This document shows, one piece after another, positions 1 to 43,029 of a DNA stretch of 43,029 bases. Under the pieces are notes generated by a model. The model was given only the letters and a program-made list of their open reading frames with translations, was not told where the DNA came from and did no database searches. The DNA lies in the NCBI GenBank assembly GCA_033901515.1, contig GCA_033901515.1_4984.1, one strand, 5' to 3'. This stretch comes from Escherichia coli. Lineage in GTDB: Bacteria; Pseudomonadota; Gammaproteobacteria; Enterobacterales; Enterobacteriaceae. The translations under genes and the position numbers were made by a program. Within the stretch, counting starts at the first letter, position 1. Each line of letters begins with the position of its first letter.

Positions 1-77
1 AGTTCCCTAAAACCCTCCTACTCCTGTAACATCATTTCTTAATAGCTTTCGAATGAAAGTAAAGGTGAAGGGATAGC
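1..77. repeat. Terminal direct repeat, left copy (identical to 42953..43029)
   Basis: Bases 1-77 (agttccctaaaaccctcctactcctgtaacat...aaaggtgaagggatagc) are repeated exactly at 42953-43029; the match stops at the window edges. Confidence 0.9.
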
Positions 78-296
78 CAAAGAGATAGCGCCGGATAGCG
101 CTGGATAGTGGGAGTGCGCCCTAGTGGGGAGCGCGCAGCGTAGCATAGAATCGGCACAATGTAAAGCACTAGCGATAGCACCACGGCGCACTAGGCGGCC
201 CGCTATGGCCCACACTATGGCCCCACAATGCTGGCACTGGAAGCCCGCAATAGGCGCACAAAATAAGCAAGACGGAGCGCGTCCCCACGGCCCACC

Positions 297-329
297 TAGT
301 GCCTCCCTAGTGCCTCCCTAGTGCCCCTA
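297..329. repeat. Tandem 11-bp repeat (tagtgcctccc x2 plus a degenerate third unit)
   Basis: Direct reading of 297-329; non-coding terminal region. Confidence 0.8.
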
Positions 330-440
330 CAAGGAGCGCATAGCAATAGGCATAGGATAGCACCAGCGATAGCCATTAAGCCGCGCAGCGAGCTTCTGCG
401 GCCCTCCTGGTGCGCCCTAGGCGGCCATATAGACGTCCAG

Positions 441-464
441 CCATCTAGCCATCTAGCCATCCAG
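441..464. repeat. Tandem 9-bp repeat (ccatctagc x2.5)
   Basis: Direct reading of 441-464. Confidence 0.8.
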
Positions 465-470
465 ACGGCA

Positions 471-481
471 CCCCCCCCCCC
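471..481. repeat. Homopolymer C run of about 11 nt
   Basis: ggca-ccccccccccc-tcc at 467-484. Confidence 0.8.
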
Positions 482-602
482 TCCTTTATACGCTAGACAC
501 CCCCTATGGGGGCAATTGGGCGCGTTGAGGGTGAGGGAGGGCCTCGCGTGAGTTTAATAAATTTCAGGTCCAGGTATAGACGTGCACCCAGAGCCCCTAC
601 AG

Positions 603-643
603 GGATACCCATGGATACCCCAGTAGTTGCCTAGTAGTTGCCT
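603..643. repeat. Paired short direct repeats (ggataccc x2; agtagttgcct x2)
   Basis: Direct reading of 601-647, just downstream of the last gene on the minus strand. Confidence 0.7.
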
Positions 644-649
644 AGTGCT

Positions 650-2659
650 TTACGAGGTCTTCAATATACCAGCAGTACGCAGACTAGCCATGAGGTTGTT
701 CACAGCTACACTAGCTGCGTCTGTACCAGAGCTATTACTTACTGCTGCAGCAGCATTAGGGCCGATTGCAATGAATCCAGCAGGAGCATCAGAGGTGGGT
801 TTAGTAGTACTAGCACGAAGCTGCCCAGTGCTAGACATCCAAACGTAATAACCGTTAAGCCGAATGTAACCATCCCGGTAGTCTCCTCGGAATTCAATAC
901 CACCTTTCTGCACTGGACCAGCCCAGCCGGAACCTGCATCAATTGTACCACGAAGGCTGTTAGGTTCCATGAACGGATTCGTTACGTTGTTGCCCAGTTT
1001 AATGCTCGCACTAACAGTGCTACGGTCACAGCACCCATTCAGGATAACGAAGGAGTCCTGCTGCGCAATTTGCAGGGTGATGGCGCTACTGCTAGTACTA
1101 TCACTTTGAATGCTGATACGGTTGCCTGTTCCCAGGTTATAGATCTCCCCGGTAACTGGGTTGCGCGAGCCACCGCCAAGACGACCTGCAATATTAGCGC
1201 TTGCACCGGTACCTAAACCATCTGTGCGGATACTGAACACGGTACTATCACAGCCCAGAGCTGTGAAGCTCTTAACGTGGCAGTCCTTAACAGTACAGCG
1301 CACCAAATCCCGTAGCTCCATAGGCCAGCGCGGAGTAGTTACATCACACAGAGTAGTGCGGAAGCACCCTTGCAAGAACACCTGCGCTCCCACGATGTCC
1401 TTGAACATACTATCGGCAGCACCATAGAACCACACACCTCGTGTAACTGGGCTACGAGGCGCCTCACAAGTCACACCCTGCAGCTGCATGTCCCGGTTCC
1501 AGGAGTAGTACGGGGTATAAAAAGCATCTACGAACACAGCATAATCACCCTGGGTACCTGTAGCCACAGTGTTCGTAACGGTAAGGCCACGAATCTGTGC
1601 ACCTGGGCAGGACATAAACTTGATCGCGGCATTATCTGTAACCGCTACACTACCACCGGCTTTGATATCCTGGACACGCATACGCCCAAAACAGTAGCTG
1701 TGGTTGATCGTACTGGGCTCCTGTACACCGCGGGCGTAAATACCGGTACTAACCAGTCCGTAAGTAAAGGCATAGATTAGTCGATCAATCTCCATACCCC
1801 GGACTTCTGGGTACGCCGCCTGACGAATCTCTAGACGCTTAATTCGCCCACCACCGTGTACACTAGACCGCCCAATCCAGCCAGTCTTAACCAGCCAAGG
1901 GTTGATGTGTTCATAATACAGTGCCTGGTCTAGTACTAATGCAGTACTGCTTACACTCTCTACTCTCGCAAACTCCATGTACGCAGTGTGGGCCTCAACG
2001 GAATCAGTGCCAGAGATATTCTCAACACGAATTATATCGCCCGCTTTAAACATACCCTCGAAATTGCCAGGTATGCTGTAGGTCCCGGCACTGATTGTAT
2101 CTGACAGTTGCACAGCAGCTTCAAGTCTACGGAACACCGGAGAAGTATATGTGTACCTGGTGCCTGTAGCAATAGTTAGGGAACTACTGCTAGCAGCGGC
2201 TACAACTGCGAAATCCGTACCAATCGCGTTCCCACGCACAGCACTGCCGCCAATGGTATCGTCCAAACTGATAGCGATAACATCACCAGCTCTAAATCCT
2301 GAGAAGTCTCCGAGGAACTCTGTGGTGCCGACTGGAACATCCTCCCATCCTAGGGAGGTTGCTACAGAATAATCTGAGCTAAAGTGTTCACCCTGCAGCA
2401 CGAGCGTAAAGTCCAGAAATGCACCTGGCGCTACCTCTACGTCTACACCGTAATCCAGAGTGATCTTATCACTGGTGTAAGTGCCCTCAGAGAACTTACA
2501 AGGACAGTTGCGGGACTTTGCTGCAGCTAAAGCATCTATGATACACGCAGCGTTAGCACTAGAGGAATTATCAGGGTTATAGCCATACTGCTCTGGGGTA
2601 GTGAATCCTAAAGGATCCAGTACCGGTGCACCTGCTTTTACCATTTTAACTAAAGCCAT
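650..2659 (-). CDS. Second receptor-binding protein / tailspike (candidate depolymerase), terminal gene
   Basis: 669-aa ORF; ATG at 2657-2659 preceded by AAGGTGGGAG. Lacks the T7 gp17-like N-terminal anchor seen in the 6626..8950 ORF. Call rests on size and position after the lysis cassette. Confidence 0.55.
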   Translation of the reverse strand: MALVKMVKAGAPVLDPLGFTTPEQYGYNPDNSSSANAACIIDALAAAKSRNCPCKFSEGTYTSDKITLDYGVDVEVAPGAFLDFTLVLQGEHFSSDYSVATSLGWEDVPVGTTEFLGDFSGFRAGDVIAISLDDTIGGSAVRGNAIGTDFAVVAAASSSSLTIATGTRYTYTSPVFRRLEAAVQLSDTISAGTYSIPGNFEGMFKAGDIIRVENISGTDSVEAHTAYMEFARVESVSSTALVLDQALYYEHINPWLVKTGWIGRSSVHGGGRIKRLEIRQAAYPEVRGMEIDRLIYAFTYGLVSTGIYARGVQEPSTINHSYCFGRMRVQDIKAGGSVAVTDNAAIKFMSCPGAQIRGLTVTNTVATGTQGDYAVFVDAFYTPYYSWNRDMQLQGVTCEAPRSPVTRGVWFYGAADSMFKDIVGAQVFLQGCFRTTLCDVTTPRWPMELRDLVRCTVKDCHVKSFTALGCDSTVFSIRTDGLGTGASANIAGRLGGGSRNPVTGEIYNLGTGNRISIQSDSTSSSAITLQIAQQDSFVILNGCCDRSTVSASIKLGNNVTNPFMEPNSLRGTIDAGSGWAGPVQKGGIEFRGDYRDGYIRLNGYYVWMSSTGQLRASTTKPTSDAPAGFIAIGPNAAAAVSNSSGTDAASVAVNNLMASLRTAGILKTS

Positions 2660-3268
2660 TTAAGCTCCCACCTTATTGAGTGCAGCTACAGCTGCGTTAA
2701 CATCCTTGAACTGGTTCCCAATGGCCTTGCTCTGCCATTGCCTGCGTTCCCACAGACCCCAGCACACTCTATTGCGCTGTCCATTGATGTGCTGGGAGCA
2801 GTCGAAGGTCCAGCGATTACGGCCCTTGTATACCCAACCGGCCCCTGGGGACTTCTGTTGGTACTTGCTAATGTAGCGCCAGTCCAGTACAGCCTTTCCA
2901 GCCGCTACATAATCTAGGTTTTTGAGATGCCGCTTCACGGCACTGCCGTTGAAGCCTGCTACACCTACATTATAAATGAAGTCTACTGACCCAATTAGAG
3001 CCACGTCAGAGAGCTGCATAGGAAGCCCATCAAGGGCCCTTGCATGTGCCCCTGCTGATTCTATCAGTTGCTTCTGACAATCGCTCAGAGAGGCTCTCTG
3101 GCCCATTTTGACGCCTTTAGTCTCCCCATAGCAGATTGTAGGAATGCCTGCACTGTCTTTGTATGCTGTAAGGCTCAAACCTTCATTGTGTTGGACTACC
3201 TCAGTAATAGCTCCGCCGAGCATAGTAGCCCCGGCGAGTGCCGCTATAACCCTAGTCCTTAAACTCAT
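2660..3268 (-). CDS. SAR endolysin (GH24 / T4-lysozyme-type muramidase)
   Basis: 202 aa; N-terminal Gly/Ala-rich signal-anchor-release-type segment RVIAALAGATMLGGAIT; catalytic spacing E-x8-D-x5-T in HNEGLSLTAYKDSAGIPT. Confidence 0.8.
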   Translation of the reverse strand: MSLRTRVIAALAGATMLGGAITEVVQHNEGLSLTAYKDSAGIPTICYGETKGVKMGQRASLSDCQKQLIESAGAHARALDGLPMQLSDVALIGSVDFIYNVGVAGFNGSAVKRHLKNLDYVAAGKAVLDWRYISKYQQKSPGAGWVYKGRNRWTFDCSQHINGQRNRVCWGLWERRQWQSKAIGNQFKDVNAAVAALNKVGA

Positions 3269-3503
3269 ATTTAATCGCCCCCTTACGTGCGTGCTCTTCT
3301 AGGAGCTTGTATGTGCGTCGTTTATAATATGCATTCCACGCCAGGGTTAGCACTGCGCATACCGTCGCAGTGATAAAGCTGATAACACTCCAGTTCCAGC
3401 TCATTAACTCCGCCAACCAGCCTCCTGAGACTGTAGCACCAGTAACAGCCGCCCCTGCCCGGGTAGCGAGGTCTGCCCCAACTCCATCTCCCACTTTAAT
3501 CAT
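3252..3503 (-). CDS. Holin-like small membrane protein (possibly pinholin-type)
   Basis: 83 aa; hydrophobic segment WSVISFITATVCAVLTLAW plus a weakly hydrophobic Gly/Ala-rich N-terminal segment; basic C-terminus; overlaps the spanin stop and endolysin start. Confidence 0.55.
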   Translation of the reverse strand: MIKVGDGVGADLATRAGAAVTGATVSGGWLAELMSWNWSVISFITATVCAVLTLAWNAYYKRRTYKLLEEHARKGAIKYEFKD

Positions 3504-3900
3504 CCTGCTGACCCTTCTTCCTAAACAGCTTACGAATCACCAGAATGGTCACTAGGAAGACCAAAGGAATGCTGGCCCCTGCTAATCCGGCGAGGATAAG
3601 GCTGTAACTATCATTGTTAACCACTTGTAGGCGCTCTGCCTGGATTGTGCCGGTACTAATAGTCTGCACTTGCTTCTTGCTAGAAGTATCCAGGGTACCC
3701 ACGTTAGAATCCTGTACATCAGTTTTGTTGGTGGTGCTGGAGTCCACCTTATTATTTAACCCAAGCATCTGCTTAGTATTCTCAGCACCCACCTGTGCAG
3801 ATACTTCCGGCTTAGAACCAACTAAGCCGGTAAGTGCAGAGGTCGCTGAGCAACCAGTCAGAGTAGCCACGAGTAGTAACCCAGCGACCAGCTTACGCAT
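3496..3900 (-). CDS. Unimolecular spanin (u-spanin)
   Basis: 134 aa; N-terminal lipoprotein signal with lipobox LTGC (MRKLVAGLLLVATLTGC) and C-terminal TM helix LILAGLAGASIPLVFLVTILVI followed by RKLFRKK. Confidence 0.7.
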   Translation of the reverse strand: MRKLVAGLLLVATLTGCSATSALTGLVGSKPEVSAQVGAENTKQMLGLNNKVDSSTTNKTDVQDSNVGTLDTSSKKQVQTISTGTIQAERLQVVNNDSYSLILAGLAGASIPLVFLVTILVIRKLFRKKGQQDD

Positions 3901-4082
3901 TAGCTAGCAGCCTTCACAGCGGTAATAGCTGTTTCTAAGGCAGCAATCTTGGCGTCGAAGGCGGCACCAGTCTGGGCTACGTCCTGTGGTTGTGTAAGGA
4001 TAACATACAGATCCTTACCTAGAATATTCAGCTGACGCAGTAGCTCCTGCTGTTGTGCTTGAGTTGCCTTTGCAATTGCCAT
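3900..4082 (-). CDS. Hypothetical protein (60 aa, Ala/Gln-rich, predicted helical)
   Basis: ATG at 4080-4082 with RBS AAGGAG; tightly packed between neighbours. Confidence 0.45.
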   Translation of the reverse strand: MAIAKATQAQQQELLRQLNILGKDLYVILTQPQDVAQTGAAFDAKIAALETAITAVKAAS

Positions 4083-4093
4083 GTGTACTCTCC

Positions 4094-4468
4094 TTATTCT
4101 TCCGCATCAGTAGCGACTACGAACGCACTTTGCAGTGCAGTGAATGATGTATCAAATGCCGTACCAGAGCCTTCACCTAGTGGCATACCTGTACCCGTAA
4201 GGGCAACGTAGCCAGTCTTCGAGAGCTGCGATAGCATGCTGAATAGGCGCGCCTGCAACGTCCCATCAGCCTTAAAGGCTGTGCCGGCGCGGGTGGCCGT
4301 ATAACCCTGGGATTGCATGTACGTAAAGAACGTATTCAGTGTGTCCAGAGCCGCAGTGCCGACAAAACCCACGTTGTAATCCGGAGATACTTGCTTTTCC
4401 AGATTCTGGGCCTTACCCACAATCTCATACTGTACATCTACAGCTTTAGCCGCGATGATTGATGCCAT
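4094..4468 (-). CDS. Hypothetical protein (124 aa)
   Basis: ATG overlaps the large terminase stop (TAATG); no recognisable motif. Confidence 0.5.
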   Translation of the reverse strand: MASIIAAKAVDVQYEIVGKAQNLEKQVSPDYNVGFVGTAALDTLNTFFTYMQSQGYTATRAGTAFKADGTLQARLFSMLSQLSKTGYVALTGTGMPLGEGSGTAFDTSFTALQSAFVVATDAEE

Positions 4469-6324
4469 TATCTTCTTCCTCTATGTTGTTTACCTCTGCC
4501 CCGGTTCTGCAACCGAGCCGCTACACCGCGAAGTCCCTTAGACAATTTGCTCTGTGCCCAATCTAGCGGGTTCTCAATGAAGGCCAGGGCCATCTTCTCG
4601 GACTCACGCTCAGCTACTACTTTCTCGTCTTCTACCAGGTGCCCATTCAGCACTGCCACCATCATAGCGATGGCGTCTGCCCGGTCATCCTTCGCTAGAC
4701 TTCCCCGGTCGTACGTAATACCTGCGAGCTGTGCGAACGCAGAGTATAACCATCGACGGTCTCGGGAGTAGAGCATACAAGTCCCGATATCATCTTGAAT
4801 AGCACGCTCATGCACCACCAGGCGATGTCGTCGAGTTACAGGGCTGATTGTGTCAATAATACGACGCTCTTTCTGCGTGGTGTTGTTGATATCGCGTACA
4901 CCGATACCGGCAAGGCGACGCTCCCTCAGGCGGTTCAGAATCAACATGGACACAGTACCGTGCCCCATGTTGCTCTCCACCACCATGTCAGAGATATCCA
5001 ACTCTACGCACAAATCAATGAGCTTATCAATATTCTCAGTGCTTACGCCTCCTTGGAAACCCCCAACGGAGAATAAGTGAATGTATGAGTTTGCAGCCCC
5101 ACCAGCAGCGTAGGACACTTCATCCCCACCACAACCCGCTGGGTCCACCACTAGCACCTTATGCTGATACGGTAGATGCATATCCCCATAGAATGCCGGA
5201 GAGTACATCTGCTGACCCATAATCCCCTCATGCTCGTGCTGGTACAAGTACCGACGGTCTGCGATGTAGGAGAAGGTCTCAGGTGAGGAATCTAGGCTAC
5301 CGGAGTACACAAGCATATCCGACAACTTGATACGGGTGCGCATCTGGTCAGACAAGGTTGTGTCGAGCATGTACTGCAGCTGGAAGCCCTCTGGGCCGAA
5401 GTCCAGCTCCTTCTCAATCAGCGCATCCTCGTCATAGCGACCGGTGTCTGTGCTCTCACCTAGTGTCCCGTCTACTCCGAACCCGGTACGTTTATAACCC
5501 CGCTCAATGAGCTGCAGTATATAAGGAGCAAGTGTACTTCCATATCGTTCTTCCATTTCAACTGACGGGATGCGCCCAGGCCACACTCGGACCTCGAAAC
5601 CACGCCCCGGCAGGGTTTTATAGATACTGTCCTTGGTCTGCGGTGTACCCAGGTACAGCGTATCCCCATGCGTACAGATAGCTGCGAAGTCTTTTGAAAT
5701 CATCAGCAACTGCTCACGCTGGGTTTGTGTCAAACCATTCTTAGTAGTCTCGATATCGTCTGGAATCAAGAGGTCAGCACGCTTACCTTGCAGGGATGCA
5801 GTGATACCGACACAGGCGACACTAGCAGACTTATCCAGCGGTTTCAGATCACAGTTGACATCATAACCTTCGAATGAAGTACGGTCCCCTCGAGTAGGGT
5901 CCGCCTTCAAGTAGCACAGTAGCGGCCAGGTTTCCAGCATACGAATGATTAAGTTCGCAACGTCGGACGCCTGTTTCTCCGCACCAGATACTATCAGTAT
6001 ACGGCAGGATTGGTCCTGGATGAGCCGCCAGACAGCATACAGCGCAGCCAGTGTAGACTTAGCTTCACCACGCTGTGCGGCTACCATGCGCTTCCTGGGA
6101 CCCTTCTGCATATACTCTGCGATATCGGCTTGCATGTCCGTCAGCGTAAAGCCCAAGAAGCGCATACCTATATATGCGAACTCCCTAAAATTGCTGAGGG
6201 TAGCCGCCATCATCATGGCGATATCCTCGCGCTCCTCTTTGGGAATACTGCGCGGATTCGCACTATAACCAGTAAGTTTCTGGTTGAGCATGCGCAGTCT
6301 TCGCGCAGTCTTCGCCGATACCAT
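4468..6324 (-). CDS. Terminase large subunit (DNA maturase B)
   Basis: 618 aa; deviant Walker A-like AAQRGEAKST; size and position after the small terminase match T7 gp19. Confidence 0.8.
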   Translation of the reverse strand: MVSAKTARRLRMLNQKLTGYSANPRSIPKEEREDIAMMMAATLSNFREFAYIGMRFLGFTLTDMQADIAEYMQKGPRKRMVAAQRGEAKSTLAALYAVWRLIQDQSCRILIVSGAEKQASDVANLIIRMLETWPLLCYLKADPTRGDRTSFEGYDVNCDLKPLDKSASVACVGITASLQGKRADLLIPDDIETTKNGLTQTQREQLLMISKDFAAICTHGDTLYLGTPQTKDSIYKTLPGRGFEVRVWPGRIPSVEMEERYGSTLAPYILQLIERGYKRTGFGVDGTLGESTDTGRYDEDALIEKELDFGPEGFQLQYMLDTTLSDQMRTRIKLSDMLVYSGSLDSSPETFSYIADRRYLYQHEHEGIMGQQMYSPAFYGDMHLPYQHKVLVVDPAGCGGDEVSYAAGGAANSYIHLFSVGGFQGGVSTENIDKLIDLCVELDISDMVVESNMGHGTVSMLILNRLRERRLAGIGVRDINNTTQKERRIIDTISPVTRRHRLVVHERAIQDDIGTCMLYSRDRRWLYSAFAQLAGITYDRGSLAKDDRADAIAMMVAVLNGHLVEDEKVVAERESEKMALAFIENPLDWAQSKLSKGLRGVAARLQNRGRGKQHRGRR

Positions 6325-6626
6325 TAGACAATTCCTTCTAGTAAGTCCTCAGAGTCTGAATCACTAATCTTGTTTAAAATCTCTTTCTTACGCGCCTCTC
6401 TGCGCGCCGCTAGTTCGTCATCAAATTCGTCGCGAAGGTCCTGCATCTCCTCGGAATCTGCATCCGCGGTGATATCATTATCCTTCAAGAACTTAGCAAT
6501 GACTGATTTATCTGCGGCGGGGAGCGGCACCTCGTCTTTTTTGGACTGCTTGATTTCTTCAATCAAGGCCTCAGTGAACATGCGGTGCAGCTCCGAGAGG
6601 CGACTGCGTTTAGCCGCCCCTGCCAT
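6324..6626 (-). CDS. Terminase small subunit (DNA maturase A)
   Basis: Tool ORF starts at TTG 6641. I prefer ATG 6624-6626 (RBS GGGGGA, overlaps tail-fiber stop as TAATG), giving about 100 aa with an acidic C-terminus. Position as T7 gp18. Confidence 0.6.
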   Translation of the reverse strand: MAGAAKRSRLSELHRMFTEALIEEIKQSKKDEVPLPAADKSVIAKFLKDNDITADADSEEMQDLRDEFDDELAARREARKKEILNKISDSDSEDLLEGIV

Positions 6627-8950
6627 TATATAGTCCCCCAAGCTTGTCTGTATACAGCGTAATGCAACGCACTATTTAGTAGGGATGTATAGTCCCCCGC
6701 TACGAACGCCTGACTAGCCTCATCCCACTTACGTACCACAGAGTAAGATGCAGCAACGCTGTGAACTTTATAGTAAGCACCTCCTACTAAAATAAACTCC
6801 CCAGCACTTAGTCCGGACGATCCCAATGCTATAACCGTCTCGTTTGCAACTATGCTGTTATATAGAGAGTAGGCTGGACCCCAACCGCTATTGGATGGAA
6901 GGGTCCCTTCCCCGCGTACGAAATTATCCTCCCCTACTGTAGCGGAGTACATGCAGTATGGCGCCTCTGCCTTAAACCTATAGAACCGGGTATTGCCACT
7001 GGATGGGTACCCCCTAGGCGTAGTATTGTATGGGATGCCGTTTGTTTGCACTCCCCGATAATATTGGCGCTCCATATAAGAGTAAACACAGCCATTTGAG
7101 GTCTTAGGCACATACAGGAAGCACCTACCGATATTCTCGTGTGTGTTCCTGCCTATATGTACATAAATCATCCCCCCGGTAGTCGCAATAGAATCTATAC
7201 AGTTACTGAACATGTTTGAGTCAATGTTGCAGTAACCGACAGCGTTCTTCATCCGTACACCTTGGCTTGAGGTCGAGGACGCCCCAATAAATGTATTAGA
7301 TTTAACGTTGACTTGATACGCAGCTGTGTTTATACGGTTTAAGAATACCCCCGAGTTTGAAAACATTTCGAACCTGCAGCCTACTACGTCTGCGTTACCG
7401 CAAGACTCTAGAAACACCCCCACGGATACGTTGCGAGCCACTACTCCGCTGATTACTACACTATTCGCATAGCCTTGAGTAGTGGATGAGCCCTCATTCC
7501 CGAAGATATCTATAGCATTGTCCGTAATATTCTGTAGGATACAATCTGATATGACTGCACCATCTGGACGCTCACACTGTATTCCTATGTACCCAGTGTT
7601 AGTCACTACACAACCACGCACTGTCAGATTAGAGCACCCATAGGTGCCTGCACCTGCCCGCCTAAAGTAGAGGCCCCCGGAAGGACTACTAAGTACGCGC
7701 ACGCCTTCACACACCACGTTAGTGGAGTCGAGTATATTAACGCACGTAATACCAGTACCAGCATTCTGTGCAACGTTACCGTCGAAGGTTATATTTGAGA
7801 TTGTGACAGAATCCGCACTGCCGTCCCAGTTGGTCAATATAGCCCCAGAAGAAGTTCCGCCAACACCGCCATTCAGGGTTATAGTCCCCCCACCGGTGAG
7901 AGTCACCCCAGAGCGTATATTTAGGGCGGACCGACCAGCAGATAGCTCACCAGCAACCGCCAAACTGTTAGAGTTTAGGGATACACGGTAATGCCCGGTG
8001 GCTAGCACCGTAGTAGGACCTGAACCTCTAACAGCATTAATATGTGCAGCATCCAGGGCAGCCTGCAAAGCCATACGCCAATCCCCGGTACTATCCGCAT
8101 AGGCTTCTGGATAGATGAATGGTACTCCACCTAAGTAGTTAAATCCATTATCCGAACTTAGCAGCCCTAAAATACTTGCAACTGCACCTGTGTCAACATC
8201 GGTATCTACACCAATAGTCATATCTACTAAGGTGCCTGCTGGTACAGTTTCTGCGAACGTCACTGTGCCGTTACGGATACTATAAGAATAGCCCGCGGTC
8301 TGAGTTACTCCATTTAACCTAATCTTAGCCTTAGTAAATGGTACTCCTGGGGTAATGGTGTTCGTGTCAGCTGGCACTACAGTCCACCACGGGAAGCTAT
8401 TAGTGTTAGCATTGAAGAACGTCTGCTCTAGGTTGGTAGTGCGTATATCCAGAGCGTCATCTGCAGCTTTGCGAGCAGCTGCCTCTGCGTCAATACGCGC
8501 GTCCAGGCGAGCATCCCCGGCATCAACATACTGCTTATTAGCAGCGTCGCGTGCATCCACAGGGTCACCCAGGTTAGTGATGCGGTAACGGTGCATGTTA
8601 ATATCGCCATAGAAACCCTCGATAGAGCGCCCTTCAACCAGCTCTTGAGCCAGGTGCAGGAACTGCGTATTCTGGGTATCTACGTTACCTTCAATGAACG
8701 GGGCACCACTAGCAAATTCAATGTAGAGGTACTCTCGTGCAGTCTTACGAATAAGAAGCACCACTGTCTCTGCAGACAGTGGGGAGTTCAGACGAATGTT
8801 GGTGGAGCTGGTCCAAGTGAAGGCTGTAGTCTCAGAACCATCTAAGTAAACGTGAATATAAGATTTATCCAGGTACTCGATATCACACTGGATATCCCGA
8901 GTACCTGTAGGCTTTACCGACTCTTGCCAGCTGTATGCCATATTAATCAT
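6626..8950 (-). CDS. Tail fiber / tailspike with T7 gp17-like N-terminal anchor and beta-helix-like body
   Basis: 774 aa; N-terminus (DIEYLDKSYIHVYLDG ... HRYRITNLGDPVDARDAANKQYVD) resembles the T7 gp17 N-terminal tail-attachment domain from memory; remainder is Gly/Ser/Thr/Asn-rich repeats (NITFDGNVAQNAG ...). Confidence 0.75.
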   Translation of the reverse strand: MINMAYSWQESVKPTGTRDIQCDIEYLDKSYIHVYLDGSETTAFTWTSSTNIRLNSPLSAETVVLLIRKTAREYLYIEFASGAPFIEGNVDTQNTQFLHLAQELVEGRSIEGFYGDINMHRYRITNLGDPVDARDAANKQYVDAGDARLDARIDAEAAARKAADDALDIRTTNLEQTFFNANTNSFPWWTVVPADTNTITPGVPFTKAKIRLNGVTQTAGYSYSIRNGTVTFAETVPAGTLVDMTIGVDTDVDTGAVASILGLLSSDNGFNYLGGVPFIYPEAYADSTGDWRMALQAALDAAHINAVRGSGPTTVLATGHYRVSLNSNSLAVAGELSAGRSALNIRSGVTLTGGGTITLNGGVGGTSSGAILTNWDGSADSVTISNITFDGNVAQNAGTGITCVNILDSTNVVCEGVRVLSSPSGGLYFRRAGAGTYGCSNLTVRGCVVTNTGYIGIQCERPDGAVISDCILQNITDNAIDIFGNEGSSTTQGYANSVVISGVVARNVSVGVFLESCGNADVVGCRFEMFSNSGVFLNRINTAAYQVNVKSNTFIGASSTSSQGVRMKNAVGYCNIDSNMFSNCIDSIATTGGMIYVHIGRNTHENIGRCFLYVPKTSNGCVYSYMERQYYRGVQTNGIPYNTTPRGYPSSGNTRFYRFKAEAPYCMYSATVGEDNFVRGEGTLPSNSGWGPAYSLYNSIVANETVIALGSSGLSAGEFILVGGAYYKVHSVAASYSVVRKWDEASQAFVAGDYTSLLNSALHYAVYRQAWGTI

Positions 8951-42952: not shown

Positions 42953-43029
42953 AGTTCCCTAAAACCCTCCTACTCCTGTAACATCATTTCTTAATAGCTT
43001 TCGAATGAAAGTAAAGGTGAAGGGATAGC
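42953..43029. repeat. Terminal direct repeat, right copy
   Basis: Exact 77-bp copy of 1..77. Confidence 0.9.

Follow-up and report, generated by a model that had tools for sequence, protein, structure and literature searches.

The window, that is, the whole stretch of 43,029 nucleotides of DNA analysed here, represents a whole Drulisvirus genome and shows approximately 91% identity to AV102, Minorna, and ZH5, three phages of E. coli. On its minus strand, the gene encoding the large terminase (terL) is followed by two small ORFs, and then by a cassette of three overlapping genes in the order u-spanin (3496-3900), holin (3252-3503), and endolysin (2660-3268), with the tailspike gene located on the far side. 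As indicated by blastn, the cassette region is 85-89% identical to the corresponding region of KP34-type Klebsiella phages, and the GenBank records of these phages annotate an endolysin, a holin, and a (u-)spanin at the matching place. The homologies, the motifs together with their conservation, and the gene order reported below were observed directly. In line with an earlier note on this DNA, all features ascribed there to the three genes were found on the minus strand where they had been placed.

Directly upstream of the u-spanin gene we located a 60-aa ORF of unknown function (3900-4082, minus strand; phrog_7375, E=6e-37), the stop codon of which overlaps the start codon of the u-spanin gene (TAATG). 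The ORF is retained at this place in the genomes of KP34, Putnam, and Minorna; with its positional counterpart in Phimunavirus, it shares a match of only 16 amino acids. It may or may not act as a translationally coupled lysis regulator; it contains neither a hydrophobic nor a TM segment and belongs to no known family. A scan of positions 1-7000 for sigma-70 sites yielded no more matches than shuffled sequence (5 versus 6.7 expected). Likewise, we did not observe terminator-like matches on the coding strand within the cassette, and minus-strand terminator-like matches are located at positions 4965, 6817, 288/285, and 102. The lack of a coding-strand terminator inside the cassette fits a co-transcription with terL and the tailspike gene, as judged by pattern matching.

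The first gene of the cassette encodes a protein of 134 amino acids. Its N-terminus comprises a lipoprotein signal peptide (3850-3900, minus strand), in which the n-region MRK and a stretch of hydrophobic residues precede the lipobox LTGC with the codon for Cys17 at positions 3850-3852. The Pfam model LPAM_1 matches at 20 bits, which equals its cut-off. The residue at position +2 after Cys17 is a serine, and the Asp signal for inner membrane retention is not present; the serine predicts sorting to the outer membrane. Moreover, Cys17 is the sole cysteine of the protein, and consequently there is no periplasmic cysteine. At the opposite end, a hydrophobic segment with a peak Kyte-Doolittle value of 2.57 indicates a C-terminal TM helix at residues ~100-122 (3535-3603, minus strand), followed by the basic tail RKLFRKKGQQDD (RKLFRKK), which is predicted to be cytoplasmic. 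In an alignment of eight u-spanin homologues the residues G16-C17-S18 are invariant, and the hydrophobic segment and the R/K-rich tail are conserved in kind. This corresponds to the topology of a unimolecular spanin, a lipobox combined with a C-terminal TM helix, that had been proposed for this ORF, and homology to T1 gp11 points in the same direction.

The protein is 95% identical to gp54 of KP34 and matches PHROG 1804, annotated as 'Rz-like spanin', with E=1.9e-50. Moreover, it shares 40% identity with T1 gp11 across 126 of its 134 residues (E=7e-26). T1 gp11 is the prototype of the u-spanins (Kongari et al. 2018; reportedly also Summer et al. 2007). A protein counts as a member of the T1 gp11 family if its identity with an existing member reaches at least 40% across 40% or more of the length (Kongari et al. 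2018, PMC6139136). Judged by identity, lipobox, C-terminal TMD with basic tail, and absence of a periplasmic cysteine, the 134-aa protein belongs to this u-spanin family, in which KP34, F19, and NTUH-K2044-K1-1 have already been placed (PMC6139136, Table 5). The same survey found no periplasmic cysteine in any of 58 u-spanins, and a T1-like unimolecular spanin has been reported for Minorna (PMC6554615).

A single-sequence AlphaFold2 model of the protein (mean pLDDT 58) contains a helix at residues 97-129 with block-mean pLDDT values of ~50-82. Over most of residues 28-92, where the confidence is low (pLDDT below 50), the model comprises close to no secondary structure, with a helix at residues 37-40 only; the periplasmic domain of the T1 gp11 family has been predicted to consist mainly of beta-strands (PMC6139136). 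The support provided by the model is moderate and limited to the terminal helices.

A lipoprotein encoded by a phage might as well serve another purpose, such as superinfection exclusion or the blocking of a receptor, as known for Llp of T5 or Cor. In favour of a protein that is not a spanin, the search with NCBIfam models yielded only a sub-threshold match to spanin2_3 (19.9 bits versus a cut-off of 80). However, the identity extends over the full length of the protein to T1 gp11, reported to complement a lambda RzRz1 defect (PMC6139136), the two-membrane topology is the defining trait of u-spanins, and genes of this family always adjoin a holin and an endolysin gene, in podoviruses and siphoviruses alike. 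In addition, the genome offers no other spanin candidate. We therefore regard a function other than that of a spanin as highly improbable.

When the entire window was scanned for lipobox-containing ORFs, the coding strand yielded no further credible lipoprotein, which indicates that a separate o-spanin is not encoded. Two further hits, one antisense to terL and one in a 42-aa ORF starting with GTG, were rejected. An internal ORF of 45 amino acids (3582-3719, minus strand), considered as an embedded o-spanin, was rejected as well, since it does not contain a lipobox.

The start of the second gene overlaps the stop of the u-spanin gene by 8 nucleotides (ATGATTAA). It encodes a protein of 83 amino acids that is 94% identical to gp55 of KP34 and matches the holin family phrog_20 with E=1.3e-16, and a search with NCBIfam models yielded no match. 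Residues 27-67 match the Pfam family of the P21 holin S (PF04971) at 27.6 bits, which exceeds the cut-off of 26 by a narrow margin. The P21 holin S (S21) is the prototype of the pinholin family. Within the matching region, residues 38-56 (3336-3392, minus strand) form a strong predicted TM helix with a mean Kyte-Doolittle value of 1.81 over 19 residues, and the C-terminus of the protein is highly charged. Upstream of this helix, residues 16-31 (3411-3458, minus strand) represent a weakly hydrophobic segment of 16 uncharged residues (75% G/A/S/T, mean Kyte-Doolittle value 1.03), a candidate for a SAR-like TMD1; a comparable GGA-rich segment is found in the holins of the T1 family. In S21, the SAR-like TMD1 is overlooked by TM predictors.

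Taken together, these data indicate that the 83-aa protein is a holin and most likely a pinholin of the P21 type, a reading under which it would have two TMDs. Of what had been proposed for this gene, the small size and the weak first segment were confirmed; the designation as a pinholin agrees with the PF04971 match above the cut-off, yet it is still a prediction. The holin of KP34-like phages has been assigned to class III with one TMD, differing from the reading with two (PMC4411677), and a note in the KP34 GenBank record likewise mentions a single TMD. The single TMD was obtained in analyses with TMHMM, Phobius, and TOPCONS. A canonical holin, of the class III-like or another type, that forms large lesions would be in line with these predictions, with the shortness and low hydrophobicity of the first segment, with the mere 1.6 bits by which the PF04971 threshold is surpassed, and with the low identity to the T1 holin (26-34% locally). 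On the other hand, the score does exceed the gathering cut-off, the richness of the first segment in G/A/S/T is reminiscent of the SAR-like TMD1 of S21, and depolarisation alone suffices for a SAR endolysin. Moreover, a pinholin is paired with a SAR endolysin in almost all cassettes of the T1 gp11 family (PMC6139136). A holin of the canonical kind thus appears rather unlikely, even if it is the most serious competitor to the readings put forward here, and we favour the pinholin.

The third gene overlaps the 3'-end of the holin gene by 17 nucleotides and encodes an endolysin of 202 amino acids, 89% identical to gp56 of KP34. The protein matches the Pfam family Phage_lysozyme (PF00959) at 71.7 bits versus a cut-off of 22.3, as well as the endolysin family phrog_7 (E=2.6e-34); with NCBIfam models, we obtained only a sub-threshold match to the BgtA endolysin (39 bits versus 315). 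The best match in the PDB is the P21 lysozyme (3HDE; phmmer E=1.6e-9), and matches to 3HDF and to RrrD (4ZPU) were also obtained. The catalytic motif E29-x8-D38-x5-T44 is encoded at positions 3137-3184 (minus strand). All three residues are invariant in an alignment of eight endolysins, and when the endolysin sequence is shuffled, just 0.7% of the shuffles contain the motif at any position. The spacing typical of GH24 enzymes, which had been claimed for this protein, is thus present, and by profile and triad the 202-aa protein is a GH24 muramidase. A single-sequence AlphaFold2 model reached a mean pLDDT of 33; this value, like that of the u-spanin model, is too low for a fold search.

Ahead of the catalytic domain, the residues R4 and R6 are followed by the segment VIAALAGATMLGGAIT (residues 7-22; 3203-3250, minus strand), which consists of 16 uncharged residues with a G/A/S/T content of 62% and a mean Kyte-Doolittle value of 1.82. 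SAR domains are rich in these four residues. The alignment with P21 R begins at residue 2 and covers both the segment and the E/D/T triad (EG...D...T), in which the catalytic glutamate is located 7 residues past the segment. The segment is conserved in the endolysins of KP34, Putnam, Clickz_B7, and T1-type phages and contains no cysteine; the cysteines of the protein are found at positions 46, 64, 157, and 169 only. Hence, by sequence the N-terminus resembles that of an R21-type SAR endolysin, with a basic n-region and a candidate SAR segment rich in G/A/S/T that directly precedes the catalytic domain, and the Gly/Ala-rich N-terminus of the SAR type described in the earlier note was borne out by its composition and by the alignment with the P21 enzyme.

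The same residues could be read as a cleavable Sec signal peptide, in which case the enzyme would be a soluble SP-endolysin. The n-region MSLRTR, the h-region VIAALAGATML of 11 residues, and the c-region GGA with small residues at positions -3 and -1 result in a plausible site for signal peptidase (LGGA|IT), and a 'signal peptide' has been predicted for the homologous endolysin of JKP2 (PMC10194101). However, the segment can be aligned with the SAR domain of P21 R (3HDE), which has been characterised by experiment, and with endolysins of the T1 type annotated as SAR endolysins, its content of G/A/S/T is typical of SAR domains, the short distance to the catalytic glutamate is reminiscent of R21, and the partner holin falls into the pinholin family. 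Cleavage of the N-terminus is therefore improbable, and we prefer the interpretation as a SAR endolysin.

The SAR endolysins of the Autographiviridae branch (Drulisvirus and Phimunavirus) share a conserved insertion of ~30 amino acids (residues 139-168 in the window protein), which contains Cys157 and Cys169, as well as a C-terminal extension. Both are absent in the T1-type enzymes. In the holin gene, codon 4 is GTG with an AGGA sequence 8 nucleotides upstream. Dual starts that give rise to a holin and an antiholin have precedents in S107/S105 and in the 71/68 pair of S21. It is conceivable, though unlikely in our estimation, that the insertion provides an extra regulatory or peptidoglycan-binding element, or that two starts in the holin gene (M1-I-K-V4) give rise to a holin/antiholin pair. 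Each of these would refine a known system only slightly.

By sequence, the three genes constitute a real host-lysis module with a one-piece spanin, a small holin, and a lysozyme with a predicted membrane tether. Very probably, this cassette is the usual module with which a KP34-like phage (Drulisvirus, Autographiviridae) lyses its host in three steps. Its transcription would take place late, jointly with the genes for the terminase and the tailspike, and its translation from overlapping frames. The 202-aa muramidase would be exported via the Sec system of the host and kept inactive at the inner membrane by the SAR segment. Meanwhile, the 83-aa holin would build up in the inner membrane until it triggers at a set time and collapses the proton-motive force. 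The loss of the membrane potential would then free the SAR segment, and the enzyme would refold into its active form and degrade the peptidoglycan. Since the SAR segment contains no cysteine, this would be a conformational switch of the R21 type, not a disulfide switch as in P1 Lyz. In R21, the released SAR helix joins the active fold.

The u-spanin would be anchored in the outer membrane by lipidated Cys17 and in the inner membrane by its C-terminal helix, and the periplasmic link of ~82 residues would thread the murein. With the murein degraded, the u-spanin could collapse or oligomerise and fuse both membranes, which would result in the release of the virions. What is expected here for the lipidation of the spanin, the release of the SAR segment, the size of the pinholes, and the fusion of the membranes is drawn from the homologues T1 gp11, R and S21 of P21, and gp45 of phiKMV. 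The terms 'SAR' and 'pinholin' are predictions throughout, including the published descriptions.

The arrangement is an ordinary one. It has been in print since 2015, when Eriksson et al. (PMC4411677, section 3.7) described the order of u-spanin, then holin, then SAR endolysin as a hallmark of the "Kp34likevirus" (Drulisvirus) phages and contrasted it with phiKMV. The cassette confirms the assignment of the window to a Drulisvirus-type phage, and its value lies mainly in a correct annotation; the three annotated lysis genes are usable for engineering or endolysin mining.

Comparison with the cassette of KP34 and other Drulisvirus phages, composed of gp54 (u-spanin), gp55 (holin), and gp56 (SAR endolysin), reveals the same order, the same lengths of 134, 83, and 202 amino acids, the same overlaps, and the same position. 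There is no structural difference; the copy in the window resides in a Drulisvirus backbone of the E. coli type and adjoins a different tailspike gene. In T1, all three proteins (gp13 holin, gp12 SAR endolysin, gp11 u-spanin) are homologous in kind to those of the window. The T1 endolysin is 28% identical, with the triad and the SAR-type N-terminus in common, and the T1 holin is similar in its C-terminal half and in having a first segment rich in G/A, at the low local identity given above. However, T1 and other Drexlerviridae follow the order holin, endolysin, spanin, whereas the spanin comes first in the window, and the endolysin of the window differs from that of T1 by the additional ~30-aa insertion and a longer C-terminus.

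Outside Drulisvirus, the order u-spanin, holin, SAR endolysin was reported for Phimunavirus in 2018 (PMC6115819). As in the window, the Pectobacterium phages phiM1, CB5, and Clickz_B7 carry terL, a small ORF, and then the genes for the u-spanin, the holin, and the SAR endolysin. Their endolysin is 62% identical to that of the window, including the ~30-aa insertion, and their spanin is 44% identical. In contrast, these phages belong to the subfamily Corkvirinae, their holin is only 26% identical, and they contain one small upstream ORF where the window contains two. The spanin-first gene order occurs in two subfamilies of the Autographiviridae.

The cassette of phiKMV, said to have been described by Briers and colleagues in 2011, is likewise located in the late region of an Autographiviridae genome, directly after the large terminase gene. 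It comprises gp44 (pinholin), gp45 (SAR endolysin), and gp46 (Rz) with Rz1, and shares the logic of a pinholin combined with a SAR endolysin. It differs in the order holin, endolysin, spanin and in its two-component Rz/Rz1 pair, which takes the place of the u-spanin. The claim that the order in the window deviates from that of phiKMV, where terL is followed by holin, lysozyme, and Rz, is therefore correct, and sequence similarity between the Kp34likevirus and phiKMV cassettes is low (PMC4411677).

Finally, P21 provides with R21 (3HDE, 3HDF) the best solved relative of the window endolysin, and the holin of the window matches the Pfam family of the P21 holin S. The SAR segments of both endolysins are devoid of cysteine. 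The identity of the two enzymes is low, and in the window protein a shorter linker connects the SAR segment to the catalytic glutamate. The spanin of P21 is an embedded two-component Rz/Rz1 system.

Over its first 25 kb, the window shares approximately 91% identity with the E. coli phages AV102, Minorna, EC22.5-2 and ZH5, and the gene map is the same as that of Minorna (Autographiviridae; Slopekvirinae; Drulisvirus). Based on this identity and the common gene map, the window is thus a complete Drulisvirus genome, written as reverse complement. Positions 1-77 recur exactly as the last 77 nt (42953-43029). This repeat has the look of an overlap left by an assembler (k=77) when the contig was closed into a circle, and does not resemble the biological direct terminal repeat of approximately 216 bp annotated in the Klebsiella phage KP34.

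In this part of the window every gene is located on the minus strand. In the order of transcription, the large terminase (4468-6324, 618 aa) is followed by ORFs of 124 aa (4094-4468; phrog_7128) and 60 aa (3900-4082; phrog_7375), a lipoprotein with a C-terminal TM helix (3496-3900, 134 aa), the holin (3252-3503, 83 aa), a lysozyme representing the endolysin (2660-3268, 202 aa) and the tailspike (650-2659, 669 aa). The 60-aa ORF and the spanin gene share the sequence TAATG, in which the stop codon of the former overlaps the start codon of the latter; spanin and holin genes overlap by 8 nt (ATGATTAA), holin and endolysin genes by 17 nt, and the endolysin TAA is joined to the tailspike ATG without a gap. 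Each start is preceded by a Shine-Dalgarno-like purine run located within the upstream gene. The cassette region shares 85-89% DNA identity with more than 200 KP34-type Klebsiella phages, whose records label it endolysin, holin, and 'Rz-like spanin' or 'u-spanin'. The 60-aa and 124-aa ORFs between large terminase and spanin are conserved; both lack TM segments and Pfam matches. In the fHeKpn01 record three features of the terminase-to-spanin region are designated 'putative structural protein', and no feature of that record in the region is called hypothetical. Phimunavirus genomes carry a 62-aa ORF at the position of the 60-aa ORF, the common match comprising only 16 C-terminal aa.

The 134-aa protein starts with MRKLVAGLLLVATLTGC, containing the lipobox LTGC with Cys17, its sole Cys, and Ser at position +2, and ends with a strongly hydrophobic stretch (aa ~100-122), which reaches a Kyte-Doolittle peak of 2.57 and leads into RKLFRKKGQQDD. 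It matches Pfam LPAM_1 at threshold and PHROG 1804 'Rz-like spanin' (E=1.9e-50), and is 95% identical to KP34 gp54 and 40% identical to the prototype u-spanin T1 gp11 (126 aa, E=7e-26). In the alignment of podovirus and siphovirus homologues G16-C17-S18 is invariant, and all aligned proteins possess the C-terminal hydrophobic segment and basic tail. A scan of the entire window for lipobox ORFs revealed no other credible lipoprotein gene, and therefore no separate o-spanin. Together with the T1 gp11 homology, this supports the reading of the earlier note that a u-spanin rather than an Rz/Rz1 pair is encoded. AlphaFold modelling from single sequences gave low confidence, also for the region of the expected beta-rich periplasmic domain.

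The 83-aa holin contains one clear TM segment (aa 38-56), preceded by an uncharged stretch (aa 16-31) consisting of 75% Gly/Ala/Ser/Thr, in line with the small holin with a weak first segment described before. It matches PHROG 20 holin (E=1.3e-16) and scores 27.6 against PF04971 (Bacteriophage P21 holin S), above the gathering threshold of 26. The layout of G/A-rich segment, TM helix and charged tail is common to T1-type holins, the identity being only ~26%. The assignment as a pinholin is less firm, since published predictors call one transmembrane domain (class III), as would fit a non-pinholin. However, the Pfam match, together with the first segment rich in G/A/S/T, points to a two-TMD pinholin resembling S21, the pinholin of P21, and we consider a non-pinholin unlikely. 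Codon 4 of the holin gene is GTG, with AGGA 8 nt upstream (CAGCAGGATGATTAAAGTGGGAG; 3492-3512, minus strand). Use of this second start would remove M-I-K and thereby one positive charge; speculatively, it would be comparable to the dual-start motifs by which lambda S and S21 encode holin and antiholin.

The 202-aa protein is a PF00959 lysozyme (71.7 bits vs 22.3). R4 and R6 precede VIAALAGATMLGGAIT, after which comes E29-x8-D38-x5-T44, so that both the Gly/Ala-rich signal-anchor-release (SAR) type segment and the GH24 spacing noted earlier were recovered. Shuffling the protein sequence reproduces the motif, at any position, in only 0.7% of cases, and E29, D38 and T44 are invariant in the homologues (n=8). 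Among proteins of solved structure, the enzyme is closest to the P21 SAR endolysin (3HDE for the full-length form, 3HDF for the active form) and to RrrD of E. coli; because the phmmer alignment begins at residue 2, it covers the SAR region. The N-terminus might instead be a cleaved signal peptide, LGGA|IT being a plausible signal-peptidase site, a reading that we regard as improbable next to the alignment with the P21 SAR region. The P21 endolysin R21 is activated by a conformational switch, P1 Lyz by a disulfide switch. Since the SAR segment lacks Cys, activation of the SAR endolysin would be expected to follow the R21 type rather than the P1 Lyz type. Comparison of the Autographiviridae-clade enzymes of the window, KP34, Putnam and Pectobacterium Clickz_B7 revealed an insertion of ~30 aa (SPGxGWVxKGxNxWxFDCSQ...RNxVCWGLWERR; C157 and C169 conserved) and one of ~10 aa at the C-terminus, both within aa ~139-202 (2660-2860, minus strand) and beyond the region alignable to solved structures. 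T1-type SAR endolysins lack both.

The analysis directly shows the homology, the motifs with their conservation, and the gene order; by analogy to T1 gp11, P21 S and R, and phiKMV gp45, we infer lipidation, SAR release, pinhole size and membrane fusion. The Sec system would export the endolysin, which the SAR segment would hold inactive in the inner membrane. Holin triggering would depolarise the membrane, whereupon the SAR segment may exit the bilayer, and the enzyme would refold and degrade the murein. The u-spanin, anchored by its lipid in the outer and by its TM helix in the inner membrane with ~82 periplasmic residues between, would then be free to draw both membranes together and cause their fusion.

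DNA similarity to the KP34-type Klebsiella phages ends near the endolysin stop codon. The tailspike has no PHROG match, and its closest phage relatives, E. coli phage Mimir124 and Klebsiella phages including SH-KP152226, are only 43-46% identical; the SH-KP152226 depolymerase is described as K47-specific (PMC6901502). The tailspike has the appearance of an exchanged module for receptor binding or depolymerase activity. Downstream of it, pattern matching alone indicates terminator-like stem-loops on the coding strand at 87-102 and 269-288 (minus strand). They are the sole minus-strand matches of this kind after the cassette, and so may mark where the late transcript ends.

Taken together, all features listed in the earlier note are present, which confirms its observation and supports its interpretation. 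The cassette is unremarkable among KP34-type lysis cassettes, which have been described before, and this interpretation is already in print. Section 3.7 of Eriksson et al. (2015; PMC4411677) reported an 83-residue holin, a SAR endolysin with basic section and H-region, and a u-spanin in KP34, SU503, SU552A, F19 and NTUH-K2044-K1-1, and inferred these holins to be pinholins. The T1 gp11 u-spanin family includes KP34, F19 and NTUH-K2044-K1-1; nearly all its members occur alongside a SAR endolysin and a pinholin, periplasmic Cys is absent from all u-spanins, and T1 gp11 complements a lambda RzRz1 defect (Kongari et al. 2018, PMC6139136). A T1-like unimolecular spanin was noted in the Minorna announcement (PMC6554615), and JKP2 is a further Drulisvirus example (PMC10194101). 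The literature searched contained no experiment on any Drulisvirus lysis protein. The spanin-holin-endolysin order was explicitly set against phiKMV and taken as a genus character (PMC4411677), and was likewise reported for Phimunavirus (PMC6115819). The spanin-first order of the window, which the earlier note had correctly set apart from phiKMV, is that of Drulisvirus and Pectobacterium Phimunavirus, whereas phiKMV has the order terL-holin-lysozyme-Rz, and T1 and other Drexlerviridae have the order holin-SAR endolysin-u-spanin.
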